This document shows, piece after piece, positions 9,405-62,915 of a stretch of DNA of 64,000 bases. The stretch lies in NCBI GenBank assembly GCA_965199855.1, contig OZ241326.1, forward strand, positions 2,594,036 through 2,658,035, read 5' to 3'. Positions within the stretch are counted from its first letter, which is position 1; every line of letters begins with the position of its first letter. The notes under the pieces are model-generated. The model saw only the letters and a list, made by a program, of their open reading frames with translations, searched no databases and was not told where the DNA came from. A program made the position numbers and the translations under genes. The stretch comes from a bacterium (GTDB lineage Bacteria > UBA8248).

Positions 9405-10531
9405 GCATGAGCCGCCTCTCCTCCTCGGTCGCCGACTTCGTCTTCGTCACCGGCTTCGCCGCCATGGAAGCCGGCGACCTCCTCATGCTCGGCGTCTCCT
9501 GTCTTCTGCTCTACCTCGCCATCCAGAAAGGCTTCGAACCTCTGTTGCTGGTGCCCATCGGATTCGGAATGTTGCTCTCCAACCTGCCCGAGACCGGCAT
9601 ATTCGAGGAGGGCGGCCTCATCCATTACTTTTATTTCGGGGTGAAGGCCGGCGTGTTTCCACCCCTGATCTTCATGGGCATCGGCGCGCTGACGGACTTC
9701 GGCCCCCTGCTGGCGAACCCGAAGACGCTTCTCCTGGGCGCGGCGGCGCAGTTCGGCATCTTCGCCACCCTCATCGGGAGCATCTTCCTGGGCTTCAGCC
9801 TGCCCGAAGCCGGCGCCATCGGCATCATCGGCGGAGCGGACGGCCCCACGGCCATCTACACCGCCTCCAAACTGGCGCCCCACCTGCTCGGCCCCATCGC
9901 CGTGGCCGCCTACAGCTACATGGCGCTCGTTCCCATGATCCAGCCCCCCATCATGCGGGCACTCACCACCGAGGAGGAGCGCAGACGGACGATGACGCAG
10001 CTCCGGGAAATCGAAAAGCCCGTCCGCATCCTCTTTCCCATCGTCACAACGCTGCTCACGGGCCTCCTGCTGCCTTCGGCCGCGCCCCTCATCGGGATGC
10101 TCATGCTCGGCAATCTCTTCCGCGAGTGCGGCGTCGTCGAGCGGCTTCTGAAAACCTCCGAGGACGCGCTGCTCAACATGGTGACGATATTCCTCGGCGT
10201 CTCCGTGGGCGCCTCAATGACGGCCGAGAGTTTTCTGAAATGGGAGACCATCGGCATCCTTCTGCTGGGGTTCGTCGCCTTCGGCATCGGAACCGCCACC
10301 GGCGTGATCTTCGGGAAGATCATGGCCGCGCTCAGCAGCGCGTCGATCAACCCTCTCATCGGCGCGGCGGGGGTGAGCGCGGTCCCCATGGCGGCGCGCG
10401 TGGTTCAGAAAGTGGGGACGGACGAAAACCCCGGGAACTTCCTGCTCATGCACGCCATGGGTCCCAACGTGGCCGGCGTCATCGGCTCGGCGATTGCGGC
10501 CGGCGTGCTGATATCGCTAATCCAAACCTGA
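9401..10531 (+). CDS. mmdB: Na+-translocating decarboxylase beta subunit (OadB/MmdB/GcdB family)
   Basis: 376 aa polytopic membrane protein, characteristic of the sodium-pump decarboxylase beta family. Confidence 0.85.
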
Positions 10532-10546
10532 CGGAGCGAAACCCTC

Positions 10547-11737
10547 ATGGCTGGACCACTCGAAGGCATCCGGGTCGTCGATCTGACGCGAATTCTGGCG
10601 GGGCCCTACTGCACCATGATGCTGGGCGACATGGGCGCCGAAGTCATCAAGATCGAAAACCCAGACGGCGGCGACGATACGCGAAGCTGGGGCCCGCCCT
10701 TCCTGAACGGGGTGAGCACGTATTTCCTCTCCATCAACCGGAACAAGAAAAGCCTCACGCTCAATCTCAAGGACGAGCGCGGAAAAGGACTTCTGCGGGA
10801 TCTGATTCGCAAGGGCGACGTGATGGTGGAGAATTTCCGGCCCGGCGCGCTGGAGAAGCTCGGATTCTCCTGGGAGGAAATCCACCGCCTCAACCCAAGG
10901 ATGATTTTCGCCTCGCTCTCCGGCTTCGGCCAGACCGGCCCCCGCAAGAGTGAACCCGGCTTTGACGTGGTCATCCAGGGCGAGGGCGGGGTGATGAGCA
11001 TCACGGGAGACCCCGACGGCCCGCCCACCAAGGTGGGCGCCTCCGTCGCGGACATCACGGCGGGAATGCTCGCCGCCCAGGGCGTCATGCTCGCCCTCTA
11101 CCACCGGGAGAAAACGGGAGTCGGCCAGATGGTGGACGTGAGCATGCTGGACGGGCAGGTGGCCCTGCTCACCTACCATGCTAACGGCTACTTCGCCACC
11201 GGCCGCGTTCCGCCGAGGCGGGGGAACAGGCACCCCTCCATCACGCCCTACGAGACCTACTCGTGCCGGGATGGGTACTTCAACCTGGGCGTGGGCAACG
11301 ACAGCCTGTGGCGAAGATTCTGCGACGCGATGGGGCTGGAGAGCGTCAAGGAAGCCCCCAGGTTCGCCGTCAACAAGGATCGGGTGAACAACCGCGAAGA
11401 ACTCCAGCAGATTCTCGACGCCTTTTTCGCCGAAAAGACGGTGGCGGAGACGCTCGAGGCCCTGCGGGGAGCCGGCATCCCGTGCGGCCCGATCAACGAC
11501 CTCGGCCAGGCGCTGACCGAGCCCCAGGTCCTCGCCCGCGAGATGGTGGTGGACATCCACGCGCCCGTCGCCGGCCCCACGAAGGTAACGGGCGTGCCCA
11601 TCAAGCTCTCGGCGACCCCGGGCGCCGTGCGGACTCCGCCGCCCGCCCTGGGCCAGCACACCGAAGAGGTGCTCGAAGCCGTCCTCGGGCTGGACGAGGC
11701 GCAAAGAAGCGCCCTTCGGGAAGCGGGCGCGGTCTGA
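10547..11737 (+). CDS. CoA-transferase family III (CaiB/BaiF) protein
   Basis: 396 aa; IRVVDLTRILAGPYCTMMLGDMGAEVIKIE N-terminus typical of family III CoA transferases. Confidence 0.85.
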   Translation: MAGPLEGIRVVDLTRILAGPYCTMMLGDMGAEVIKIENPDGGDDTRSWGPPFLNGVSTYFLSINRNKKSLTLNLKDERGKGLLRDLIRKGDVMVENFRPGALEKLGFSWEEIHRLNPRMIFASLSGFGQTGPRKSEPGFDVVIQGEGGVMSITGDPDGPPTKVGASVADITAGMLAAQGVMLALYHREKTGVGQMVDVSMLDGQVALLTYHANGYFATGRVPPRRGNRHPSITPYETYSCRDGYFNLGVGNDSLWRRFCDAMGLESVKEAPRFAVNKDRVNNREELQQILDAFFAEKTVAETLEALRGAGIPCGPINDLGQALTEPQVLAREMVVDIHAPVAGPTKVTGVPIKLSATPGAVRTPPPALGQHTEEVLEAVLGLDEAQRSALREAGAV

Positions 11738-29641: not shown

Positions 29642-30852
<1,211 letters not shown>

Positions 30853-45781: not shown

Positions 45782-45857
45782 TGGCAGGCCAGGAGGGACT
45801 CGAACCCCCAACCGCCGGATTTGGAGTCCGGTGCTCTGCCGATTGAGCCACTGGCCT
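45782..45857 (-). tRNA. tRNA-Trp (anticodon CCA)
   Basis: rc = AGGCCAGTGGCTCAATCGGCAGAGCACCGGACTCCAAATCCGG...CTGGCCTGCCA; cloverleaf with CCA anticodon and encoded 3' CCA; classic tuf-tRNATrp-secE position. Confidence 0.9.
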
Positions 45858-45903: not shown

Positions 45904-47114
<1,211 letters not shown>

Positions 47115-47343: not shown

Positions 47344-47419
47344 TGGAGCCCACGACCGGACTTGAACCGGTGACCTCTTCCTTACCAAGGAAGTGCTCTG
47401 CCGGCTGAGCTACGTGGGC
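47344..47419 (-). tRNA. tRNA-Thr (anticodon GGT)
   Basis: rc = GCCCACGTAGCTCAGCCGGCAGAGCACTTCCTTGGTAAGGAAG...CGTGGGCTCCA. Confidence 0.9.
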
Positions 47420-47551
47420 CGGCGCGGGCTACGGCTTTCTTCAACCCGAAGCCGCTCTTTCGGGCGATGAACTCCCGACGCCCGTCCCGGGCGAATAATA
47501 CAGCTTCTCGCGCCCCCGACAACCCCGGGAGCCGAAGCCTCGAAATTCTCC

Positions 47552-47627
47552 TGGAGCGGGAAACGGGGCTCGAACCCGCGACCCTCAGCTTGGAAGGCTG
47601 ATGCTCTACCAACTGAGCTATTCCCGC
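47552..47627 (-). tRNA. tRNA-Gly (anticodon TCC)
   Basis: rc = GCGGGAATAGCTCAGTTGGTAGAGCATCAGCCTTCCAAGCTGA...TTCCCGCTCCA. Confidence 0.9.
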
Positions 47628-47674
47628 GCCTGAATCCTGAGCGTCCGCTCTCGCCGCCTGGGCGAGTCATCCGT

Positions 47675-47759
47675 TGGTGGGGAGGGGAGGATTCGAACCT
47701 CCGAAGGCTGAGCCGTCAGATTTACAGTCTGATCCCTTTGGCCACTCGGGAACCTCCCC
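47675..47759 (-). tRNA. tRNA-Tyr (anticodon GTA), long variable arm
   Basis: rc = GGGGAGGTTCCCGAGTGGCCAAAGGGATCAGACTGTAAATCTGACGGCTCAGCCTTCGGAGGTTCGAATCCTCCCCTCCCCACCA. Confidence 0.9.
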
Positions 47760-47892
47760 TGAAGTCCGCCGTCCGTCATCCATGACAAGCCGGCTTGCGG
47801 GCCGCCGCGTCCGCCGAAATCAAGAGTGAGGAAAGCGGAGGAAGCGGAACGCCCGACGTTCGCCGCGGGGATTCCGGCGTCCAAATCCCGCC

Positions 47893-47968
47893 GTGGAGCT
47901 GGCGAGAGGACTCGAACCTCCGACCTGCTGATTACAAATCAGCCGCTCTACCCGCTGAGCTACGCCAG
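47893..47968 (-). tRNA. tRNA-Thr (anticodon TGT)
   Basis: rc = GCTGGCGTAGCTCAGCGGGTAGAGCGGCTGATTTGTAATCAGC...CGCCAGCTCCA. Confidence 0.9.
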
Positions 47969-47984
47969 CCGACAAGGGCGAGGC

Positions 47985-60839: not shown

Positions 60840-61742
60840 ATGGACTCGAACGCCTACGGCGTGCTGCTGGCCTCGGCCGCCTCGTTCTCCTGGGCGGTGT
60901 TCACCTATTTCATCAAAAGGGCGCTGACGAACGCCCCCGTTCTCAAGATCACAGCGGCCGTTACGACCGCGAACGCCGCGCTCGTGACGCTCATCGCCGC
61001 ATTCTTCGTCCCGGTCGAGGAGGCGTCGCGCGCCGACGCGAGCGCCCTGCTCTTCTGCTTCCTGGCGGGCTTTTTCCACATCGGCATCTCGCGCTCCTTC
61101 TTCTATCGCTCCATCCAGCGCATCGGTCCGAACCGCTCCATCCCCATCGCCCTGACGTATCCCGTCGTCACGGCGTTCGCGGCGTCCTTCGCCCTGGGAG
61201 AGGCGCCGACCGCCTCCATCCTCGCCGGCCTCCTGGTTCTCCTCGGGGGAATCACGCTCATCGTTCAAGCCGAGCCGCCCGCGCCCGCCTCCTCGGAGGC
61301 TCGCGGCGCGAGGTGGAAGCTGTTCGGCTGGCTTTCCGCCGGCGTCACATCGCTCCTCTGGGGCGTGGCCGCCGTGTTCTTCAAGAAGGCGTCCCTGGTT
61401 CTCCACCCGCTCGCCACCGCCTCCATCGCGCTCTGGGTGGGCGCGATGACGGCCTGCCTCCTCGTCCTGCTGGACAGGGGCGAAGAATCGCGGGGCGGCA
61501 TTCCCTCCTCGGCGTGGCGGTGGATTCTCGCCGCCGCCGCGTGCCAGGCGATTGCCGTGCCGCTCTACAACTTCGCGTTCGTCCACGCCCTGGCCGTGCG
61601 CGTGACGGCCATCGTCTCCGCCCAGCCGCTCGTCGTGCTCCTGCTCGGCTGGCTCTTCATGCGCGAGACGGAGAACATCACGCCCCGGCTCGCTTTCGGT
61701 GCGCTTCTCACCGTGGCCGGGACCATCGTCGTCATCACGTAA
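60840..61742 (+). CDS. EamA/DMT-superfamily transporter
   Basis: 300 aa, 10 TM, duplicated EamA halves. Confidence 0.75.
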   Translation: MDSNAYGVLLASAASFSWAVFTYFIKRALTNAPVLKITAAVTTANAALVTLIAAFFVPVEEASRADASALLFCFLAGFFHIGISRSFFYRSIQRIGPNRSIPIALTYPVVTAFAASFALGEAPTASILAGLLVLLGGITLIVQAEPPAPASSEARGARWKLFGWLSAGVTSLLWGVAAVFFKKASLVLHPLATASIALWVGAMTACLLVLLDRGEESRGGIPSSAWRWILAAAACQAIAVPLYNFAFVHALAVRVTAIVSAQPLVVLLLGWLFMRETENITPRLAFGALLTVAGTIVVIT

Positions 61743-61852
61743 GAGCCGCGGAGGCGCGGCTTCTCCCGCCTCATGGAAAGTGTGCTACGCTGGCGCCGCG
61801 GTCTTTCATTCAGGCAGCTTGCCGAAGCCTCATTCCCGGAAGGAGAGCATTC

Positions 61853-62329
61853 ATGGGCGAAGTCATCCACGTCACAAAGGCCCGCGTCGTCAAGGAGCCG
61901 GGCAGAGGGATGAAGACGGCGTATTTCGAGGCATTCCCCGACGCGCCGGTTCCCTACGGCATTCACGGGGGAATCAAGAACTTCTACAAGGCGGAGCCCG
62001 TGGAGGAGCGGCCGGCCACGCTGGATCACCTGGCCGCCGCCGTCGCCGGCTGACTGACGGGCAACATGGGAGGCGCGCTGGAGGCGCGCGGAATCAAGAG
62101 CAGTCCCGACAACCTGACGGCGGAGGTCGAGGGCGTCATCGAGAACGTGGACGGCACGGCGCTGGTGACGAAGATCAAGGTCCACTACACGTGCAGGATT
62201 CCGAAGGGAAAGCGCTCGGACGCCGAGCGCGCCCTCGCCGTGCACGAGAAGGGCTGTCCGGCCAGCCAGAGCGTGCGGCGCGGCATCGCCGTCGAACTCT
62301 CGGCCGACTTCGAGGAAATCGAAGAATAG
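61853..62329 (+). CDS. OsmC/Ohr-family peroxiredoxin-like protein with in-frame TGA (candidate selenocysteine) at the conserved peroxidatic Cys position
   Basis: ORF track splits it into 61313..62053 (ends TGA 62051-53) and 62066..62329 in the same frame; joined product ...ATLDHLAAAVAG-U-LTGNMGGALEARGI...VHEKGCPASQSV... matches OsmC motifs (AxG-C and GCP); AAGGAGAG RBS 7 nt before ATG 61853; GC hairpin GCGCGC(UGGAG)GCGCGC ~20 nt after the TGA. Confidence 0.55.
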
Positions 62330-62392
62330 CGAACCTGAGGGACGAGGCCCCGGGAGCGTCCGCCGTTCCCGGAGCTTCGACGCCCGGCGGCC

Positions 62393-62608
62393 TTACACGA
62401 ACGGGACGCCGTATCGGCATCGCCTGTCGATTCCCCACGCCATGCGGGCGGAGAAGCCGAGAAGCAGCGCGAGCCAAGCCGCCTGCGTCCAGGCGCCCGG
62501 AAGAGGCGCGCCCACCGGGAACATCAGGGAGAAGACGAACGCGCTCGGCGCCGCCCACGCGAACGCGAGATAGGCGAGGATGAGCGACCAGTCCAAAAGC
62601 GAGAGCAT
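62393..62608 (-). CDS. Small hypothetical membrane protein
   Basis: Trimmed to MLSLLDWSLILAYLAFAWAAPSAFVFSLMFPVG... two hydrophobic helices; no homology signal. Confidence 0.25.
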   Translation of the reverse strand: MLSLLDWSLILAYLAFAWAAPSAFVFSLMFPVGAPLPGAWTQAAWLALLLGFSARMAWGIDRRCRYGVPFV

Positions 62609-62915
62609 GGCTCTTTTCCGCAGGCGCGGGCGGGCCGAAAACGCGCCTTGAGGGGGAGCGGACAGCGCGATATCACCGATGGCGGATGCTTTTCGAGAGT
62701 TTTTCCGAAAAACGGAGCATGCCCGAAGCGTTTCGCCGACCACTCCCTTCCCGGTCGAGGACGACGCCTGAATGACGGGTTCCGAGGCGGCGCGCGCCGG
62801 AGGGGAAGCCTCCGTCGTCATCCTCAAGGCGGAGGGAGCGCGGAACCGGGGGCTTCGGCCCTCCCGCCAATGGCGAGGAGAGGAAAGCGCTCTCGCAGGC
62901 CGCGCCCGCCTGGCT

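Follow-up and report, generated by a model that had tools for sequence, protein, structure and literature searches.

A conserved in-frame UGA at the catalytic cysteine codon of an OsmC-like gene very probably specifies selenocysteine

The stretch of DNA analysed here (hereafter the window: 64,000 nucleotides, positions 2,594,036 to 2,658,035 of contig OZ241326.1, assembly GCA_965199855.1) contains, close to its 3' end and on its plus strand, an OsmC-like gene with an in-frame UGA codon at 62051-62053. The evidence assembled below makes it very probable that 61853-62329 is a single gene for a 158-residue redox protein of the OsmC/Ohr superfamily, and that the UGA is read as selenocysteine (Sec) by virtue of a hairpin in the coding sequence downstream. 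The coding sequence (CDS) begins with ATG at 61853, 7 nt 3' of a Shine-Dalgarno-like AAGGAG (61840-61845, plus strand, 5/6 match to AGGAGG), and runs over 158 codons, counting Sec67, to a TAG at 62327-62329; the UGA is its sole in-frame TGA. The peptide around codon 67 would read ...PATLDHLAAAVAG-U-LTGNMGGALEAR. The fused product, searched with a Cys placed at the TGA codon, matched the Pfam OsmC family (PF02566) with an E-value of 2e-13 and 51 bits (gathering cutoff 27.5). The match covers residues 54-149, and one domain therefore spans the TGA. The original prediction had joined two adjacent same-frame open reading frames (ORFs) into one OsmC-like selenoprotein gene of about 157 residues; the join and the selenoprotein interpretation as a whole are supported, and the length was nearly right, the product having 158 residues when the TGA codon is counted.

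The UGA stands at the place of a catalytic residue. In phmmer alignments with chains of the Protein Data Bank (PDB), residue 67 falls opposite the Cys of the AAHAGC/AAHAAC motif in the OsmC proteins of T. thermophilus (1ukk) and E. coli (1qwi/1nye), while Cys135 falls opposite the Cys of the GCPVS motif of the same structures. These two OsmC residues are the peroxidatic and the resolving Cys, respectively. The position of the TGA is thus the one originally claimed for it, and the second conserved Cys, described at the time as intact, is encoded by TGT at 62255-62257 (plus strand) within the motif H-E-K-G-C-P-A-S and is invariant across the family alignments. Full-length Cys-containing homologues, approximately 50% identical to the window protein, were recovered by protein search and carry Cys at the residue-67 position. 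The original prediction had proposed looking for relatives with TGC at this codon: among 68 distinct DNA sequences of Cys forms, all have a Cys codon there, TGC in 64 and TGT in 4. An in-frame UGA aligned with the Cys of non-selenoprotein homologues is one of the features by which a selenoprotein gene is recognised. Of the residues that follow, T69 and G70 do not vary in the wider family.

The fold was examined on P0004, the nearest of the Cys-form homologues (55% identical), whose AlphaFold model stands in for the window protein. In this model (pLDDT 92.6) the Cys is predicted to lie within a helix extending from residue 54 to residue 76. The whole modelled chain, including its N-terminal strands, matches OsmC, Ohr or OsmC-like structures (Foldseek E=1e-8 to 1e-6, TM 0.65-0.85), and the best PDB matches are all of these three kinds. 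Placement of the window protein in the OsmC/Ohr superfamily is based on a Pfam score above threshold and, through the model, on a predicted fold bearing two conserved redox residues, one in helix alpha-1 and the other in the CP[VA]S motif.

The same protein search also yielded some two dozen proteins, each 87 amino acids long, 80-94% identical and many of them on contigs of megabase size, which are the C-terminal ORF as seen by gene callers. The 87-aa ORF of the window itself is present on 21 contigs, including one of 3,033,334 bp (the circular ctg394336 of ERZ25070167) with 98.7% identity to the window along 12 kb. The gene is likewise carried by OZ251456.1, OZ244906.1 and OZ253442.1. A set of 36 related loci was gathered from the fetched places of protein matches and from one scan of a genome collection. 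Most of them belong to metagenome-assembled genomes (MAGs) that are unclassified or labelled by NCBI as Nitrospinota, Nitrospinae or Nitrospinaceae, with protein identities of 84-93%; they constitute the main clade. A Methylomirabilota-labelled MAG (L031) has an orthologue at 78% identity in which the main-clade hairpin is present, and five Methylomirabilota/Rokubacteria MAGs (L033-L037) make up a distant clade at about 60% identity. These are not the classical selenium-using anaerobes of which the original prediction had held Cys-to-Sec swaps to be characteristic.

In all 35 distinct orthologous CDS, down to approximately 60% identity, the Sec67 codon is TGA. Such uniformity is far beyond chance, in line with the earlier argument that a random stop was unlikely to land on the catalytic Cys codon. 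Evolutionary rates were computed by the Nei-Gojobori method between the window and 28 other main-clade sequences, separately for codons 1-66 and codons 68-158. The ratio of nonsynonymous to synonymous changes (dN/dS) ranged from 0.07 to 0.23 in the first of these segments and from 0.13 to 0.30 in the second, with all-pairs medians of 0.07 and 0.08, respectively. Both halves of the gene are under strong purifying selection. Since dS between the window and its main-clade relatives amounts to 0.23-0.83, the orthologue set is not one recently spread identical allele. The retention of UGA, rather than of other stop codons, among orthologues whose coding sequence is conserved on both sides is a second feature that marks out a selenoprotein gene.

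The purifying selection seen on either side of the TGA would fit two functional pieces as well, namely a 66-aa N-terminal peptide ended by a true UGA stop and an 87-aa protein started at the ATG at 62066 (codon 72), the two being perhaps assembled non-covalently. Gene callers consistently predict exactly these two ORFs, the NCBI name for the 87-aa product is 'OsmC family protein', and the ATG at codon 72 is kept in the main clade; in the Methylomirabilota clade the sole nearby AUG lies directly 3' of the UGA. The candidate restart codon is however found at differing positions in the two clades, and the ATG at 62066 lacks a Shine-Dalgarno sequence (3/6 match to AGGAGG upstream). The interruption is TGA in each of the 35 sequences, whereas the real terminators of the orthologous CDS use all three stop codons (TAG 19, TAA 13, TGA 3). 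Furthermore, the codons that lead from the UGA to this ATG, L-T-G-N at 62054-62065 (plus strand), show synonymous change only across 29 main-clade sequences (ACG/ACC/ACT, GGC/GGT, AAC/AAT); they are conserved as protein, hence translated and not a spacer. A split would break the protein within the long catalytic helix and remove the catalytic residue entirely, and it would leave unexplained the selection on the hairpin and the rare CUA codons that are described below. On structural and evolutionary grounds two separate polypeptides are implausible, and I regard a split gene as very unlikely.

The hairpin that would direct Sec insertion at the UGA occupies 62073-62089 (plus strand). It begins 19 nt after the UGA, the distance having been put at about 20 nt, and its GCGCGC/GCGCGC stem (62073-62078/62084-62089) closes an apical loop UGGAG (62079-62083), as had been described; in an alternative pairing, U79 and G83 extend the stem to 7 bp and leave a GGA loop. 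In the published model of the bacterial Sec insertion sequence (bSECIS), the apical loop measures 3-9 nt and the upper stem 4-16 bp, a G stands within the first two loop positions with N1-G-[G/U]-N-N2 as the usual loop, the loop is 16-37 nt from the UGA and the minimum free energy is -7.5 kcal/mol or lower (PMC13188914). With a stem of 6-7 bp, a UGGAG or GGA loop, a spacing of 25-26 nt and a folding energy of -11.2 kcal/mol, the window hairpin lies within every one of these bounds. Main-clade hairpins overall have energies of -11.2 to -11.4 kcal/mol and lie 25-26 nt from the UGA. The hairpin of the Methylomirabilota clade, CGCUAGC-CGUGGC-GCUAGCG, is differently built (-10.4 kcal/mol, 17 nt from the UGA) and agrees with the model on all counts as well.

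A qualifying hairpin alone is modest evidence, and several observations weigh against the view that this one is a SECIS element serving a Sec codon. In a sequence of 65% GC such structures are frequent: 10% of arbitrary window positions precede a qualifying hairpin, and 4% precede one at -10 kcal/mol or lower. The folding energy of the whole region is no better than that of shuffled sequences (z=-0.84 and 0.0), and these non-significant scores were replaced by tests of model constraints, background rates and synonymous sites. Rfam returned no SECIS match over 61800-62400 even at E<=10, and neither a SECIS nor a tRNA-Sec match in the whole window at gathering thresholds; the SECIS null says nothing either way, models of bacterial SECIS elements being specific to clades. 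A comparison with 80 Cys-form loci (L044-L123), representing 67 distinct genes, showed the GCGCGC...GCGCGC stem to be intact in 19 of the 67. The peptide G-A-L-E-A-R is palindromic when written in GC-rich codons, and the main-clade hairpin is for this reason partly a by-product of coding. The compatibility with a bSECIS on which the original prediction relied was thus borne out, while the hairpin proved less diagnostic than had been assumed. Lastly, no selA, selB, selD or tRNA-Sec gene is located within the 64-kb window, nor was a tRNA-Sec detected in 34 related loci. The main gap in the argument is the Sec machinery of this organism, whose presence beyond the window is inferred, in part from relatives of a phylum, UBA8248, to which NCBI labels suggest that the organism probably belongs.

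The hairpin of Sec forms can nevertheless be told apart from that of Cys forms by the combination of stem and loop. All 13 distinct main-clade Sec forms combine an intact stem with a GG loop, compared with 5 of the 67 Cys forms that encode the same peptide, in which the loop is UGGAR (Fisher p=3e-11, a value overstated because the sequences are related phylogenetically). Synonymous variation is likewise reduced in this region. The four 4-fold degenerate sites in the stem have pi values of 0, 0, 0 and 0.07, whereas 54 other 4-fold sites average 0.26; over codons 68-80 the mean is 0.08, versus 0.26 elsewhere. The only change seen in the stem, C to U at 62089 in one relative (L029), leaves a G-U pair in place. 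The stem of the Methylomirabilota clade makes use of two CUA Leu codons, although CUA accounts for 1.8% of Leu codons in the flanking genes, and both positions are CUG in the one relative that lacks the TGA (L042, see below). Taken together, the retention of stem plus loop, the freezing of synonymous sites and the rare CUA codons indicate, at the level of sequence comparison, that the hairpin RNA is itself under selection. Stronger evidence than the presence of a hairpin comes from the frozen synonymous sites and from the hairpin that the distant clade built independently.

The overlap with Cys forms raises the question of where the element came from. One possibility, which I offer tentatively and hold to be somewhat less than an even chance, is that the SECIS derives from the exaptation of a pre-existing coding palindrome (GGC GCG CUN GAR GCG CGC) and that a later rebuilding in the Methylomirabilota clade, with the help of the two CUA codons, moved it 9 nt upstream. 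Of the Cys-form genes, about 28% have a 6-bp hairpin at the right distance, and in about 7% a GG loop is present in addition. Since the palindrome pre-exists in Cys forms, a single TGC-to-TGA change could have given a working selenoprotein gene. The stem with a UGGAR loop in Cys-form genes would then be a possible proto-SECIS, predating the Cys-to-Sec change. If this is true, the family provides a traceable example of the onset of Cys-to-Sec conversion and of SECIS turnover within a coding sequence.

How UGA is used in this DNA and in related genomes bears on whether Sec is the residue inserted. UGA ends 18 of the 42 confident ORFs in the window. It is an ordinary stop there, so that any recoding is local, and global reassignment of UGA was rejected on this ground. 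A scan of the window for other coding frames interrupted by TGA found none, returning antisense frames and ordinary gene junctions only. Among the latter are the TGA stops at 8585 and 10529, which are not recoding sites: they lie in a series of abutting same-frame genes (6974-11737, plus strand) for a carboxyltransferase, a small ORF, an oxaloacetate-decarboxylase beta-like subunit and a family III CoA-transferase.

Applied to loci L001-L043, the scan for TGA interruptions returned the OsmC-like genes, three ordinary junctions (L038, L039, L041) and a single further gene, which is found in L031. This gene (L031 1605-2327, minus strand) encodes an AhpC/TSA (Prx-like) protein (Pfam E=4e-27) and has an in-frame TGA at 2016-2018 in the context FYRGRW-U-PYC, the classic UxxC motif of Prx-like selenoproteins. 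It is separated by a single TetR-like gene, and by about 0.7 kb, from the OsmC-like orthologue, which is encoded on the other strand. An 8-bp hairpin, GCAGAGCU-GGA-GGCUCUGC, lies 12 nt 3' of its UGA, and the apex of this hairpin, CUGGAGG, equals that of the window hairpin; the common apex may reflect a lineage-specific recognition motif of SelB. Homologues of the L031 Prx-like protein are mostly called as fragments of 103-128 aa, which points to widespread splitting at TGA. In a search with its C-terminal part, the best 120 matches were all on contigs other than the window's chromosome. MAGs with similar labels are reported to be rich in selenoproteins: the ten richest bacteria in BSepDB include three MAGs that bear the label Nitrospinota, Nitrospinaceae or Nitrospinae (GTDB phylum UBA8248) and have 48-54 selenoprotein genes (PMC13326102), and a Methylomirabilota MAG with 63 selenoprotein genes has been reported (PMC13188914).

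As Sec machinery is presumed for this genome, the UGA could in principle be recoded in some other way, either by SECIS-independent readthrough or suppression, with Trp, Cys, Arg or Gly at codon 67, or by leaky termination. One orthologue of the Methylomirabilota clade (P0002, L042 657-1121) indeed has GGA in place of TGA at the Sec codon, as if a residue that is neither Cys nor Sec could be encoded at the site. The possibility that this Gly is an artefact of translation with code 25 was rejected, the codon being truly GGA. The variant rests on one 1.3-kb contig with one member sequence, so that a real variant and an error are indistinguishable, and its hairpin, with CUG at both CUA positions, is weakened to tandem G-U pairs. 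Every Cys-form homologue has its catalytic Cys at this site, and no residue other than Sec or Cys would keep the chemistry. Decoding as another residue is further opposed by the selection on a SECIS-fitting hairpin downstream, by the common use of UGA as a genuine stop in the window and by the proximity, in L031, of a UxxC selenoprotein gene of known family with a similar hairpin apex. I therefore consider that recoding by a residue other than Sec is highly improbable.

The idea of a pseudogene, in which a nonsense mutation would have inactivated an OsmC-like gene, scarcely deserves credit: an in-frame stop inside a conserved domain does formally look like one, and one relative (P0001) shows a frameshifted version, but the TGA is kept to about 60% identity, omega is 0.07-0.3 on both sides and there are no further stops or indels, so that the relatives display a conserved gene and not a disrupted one; the original prediction had also judged a pseudogene unlikely. 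P0001 (L043 2001-2480) appeared to be a full-length relative of 159 aa without a stop and was rejected as such. It is a double-frameshift artefact of assembly, with two indels that compensate each other on a long-read contig of 3x coverage, and its native frame still reads ...AAAVAG*LTGNMGG, the TGA being retained.

If the gene encodes a selenoprotein, its expression and chemistry can be outlined by analogy with known systems. SelB and Sec-tRNA(Sec) would decode the UGA at 62051-62053 as Sec67, with the 62073-62089 hairpin serving as the SECIS that directs them. Sec67 would take the place of the peroxidatic Cys of OsmC and Ohr, and Cys135 that of the resolving Cys. The two residues would most likely work together in a reductase cycle acting on hydroperoxides or disulfides: the selenolate of Sec67 would attack a hydroperoxide, a disulfide or another oxidant and be converted to a selenenic acid, which Cys135 would resolve by forming an intramolecular selenenylsulfide. 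Re-reduction of the selenenylsulfide by a thiol or a lipoyl-type reductant would then regenerate the enzyme.

The notion of an OsmC-like selenoprotein is not new. Three such sequences, assigned to COG1765 and characterised by a UxxT motif and a predicted SECIS, were described in the Sargasso Sea selenoproteome by Zhang, Fomenko and Gladyshev in 2005 (PMC1088965). The family was found again in the GOS data in 2008 (PMC2398784) and is listed in a 2026 review with MCS5647933.1 as its representative (PMC13188914). The present gene adds to this established kind: like the catalogued proteins, its product belongs to PF02566, has UGA/Sec for the redox Cys and is encoded with a SECIS-like hairpin within the CDS that has a G in the apical loop. 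It differs from them in motif, which is U-L-T-G (UxT; C-[ML]-T-G-T in the Cys forms) instead of UxxT, and in family assignment, its best NCBIfam match being OsmC (TIGR03562) instead of COG1765. This match is itself sub-threshold, at 29.3 bits against a cutoff of 85.8, and the score for Ohr (TIGR03561) is 22.1 bits against 88.85. Against NF041052, the NCBIfam model of the 'OsmC-related (seleno)protein', the window protein scores 20.2 bits (E=4e-4) where the cutoff is 95. It is therefore related to that family without being a member of it and represents a different subfamily. Sequence comparison thus indicates a distinct subfamily of the OsmC superfamily, outside NF041052, with a predicted Sec at the equivalent catalytic position.

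Several wider comparisons help to place the protein. It would share with OsmC (1qwi/1nye, 1ukk) and Ohr the full-length fold, judging from the P0004 model, and both catalytic positions are aligned; sequence identity is 10-22%, however, the first site would be occupied by Sec, and the activity is predicted by analogy. The UxxC selenoproteins of the Prx-like/AhpC-TSA type resemble it in having Sec for the redox Cys of a thiol peroxidase-type protein, but they have an unrelated, thioredoxin-like fold and none is encoded in the window. As for the RNA, the hairpin follows the bacterial SECIS consensus (bSECISearch; E. coli fdhF/fdnG type) in being a stem-loop within the CDS, 3' of the UGA, with a small G-containing apical loop; it departs from it in having no similarity to Rfam SECIS and in that the main-clade stem is a coding palindrome shared with some Cys forms.

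Present annotation hides the gene. NCBI records of relatives (P0251, P0252) hold the 87-aa fragment only, as 'OsmC family protein [Nitrospinae bacterium]' in MCY3824739.1 and as 'hypothetical protein' in MYA95859.1, and the 66-aa N-terminal ORF is called separately and has no Pfam match. This error, an 87-aa fragment next to an orphan 66-aa ORF, recurs across many genomes. A dedicated subfamily model would recover the full-length redox enzyme in Nitrospinota-labelled genomes, which are probably of GTDB UBA8248, and in Methylomirabilota genomes, and improve selenoproteome counts. Selenoprotein biology as known is unchanged by the finding, which would add a second lineage of the OsmC superfamily with Sec at the peroxidatic position. 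The natural series of Sec, Cys and Gly at this codon, together with the series of proto-SECIS in Cys forms, could be used to study the origin of a Sec site.

The gene is preceded on the same strand by an EamA-family transporter gene (60840-61742, plus strand), noted here as context. The order methyltransferase, EamA, 66-aa ORF, 87-aa ORF recurs in L001, L005-L010 and L039-L041, and is not conserved in L031 or L033-L035. As this synteny is limited to the main clade, no functional inference was drawn from the neighbourhood. Downstream, the stretch between the OsmC-like gene and a xanthine-dehydrogenase-family gene (window 62330-62915) varies among the same syntenic loci: many close relatives have an SSF-family transporter there, which is absent from the window's species, and in L005 an IS110-family transposase (3555-4580) is inserted downstream of the OsmC-like gene. 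Elsewhere, the window contains two 100% identical copies of the EF-Tu gene (tuf), at 29645-30841 and 45907-47103, both on the minus strand. One copy belongs to a fusA-tuf-S10 block, while the other stands after a tRNA-Thr/Tyr/Gly/Thr cluster (47344-47969) and before tRNA-Trp (45782-45857), a two-copy layout that is a common bacterial arrangement.

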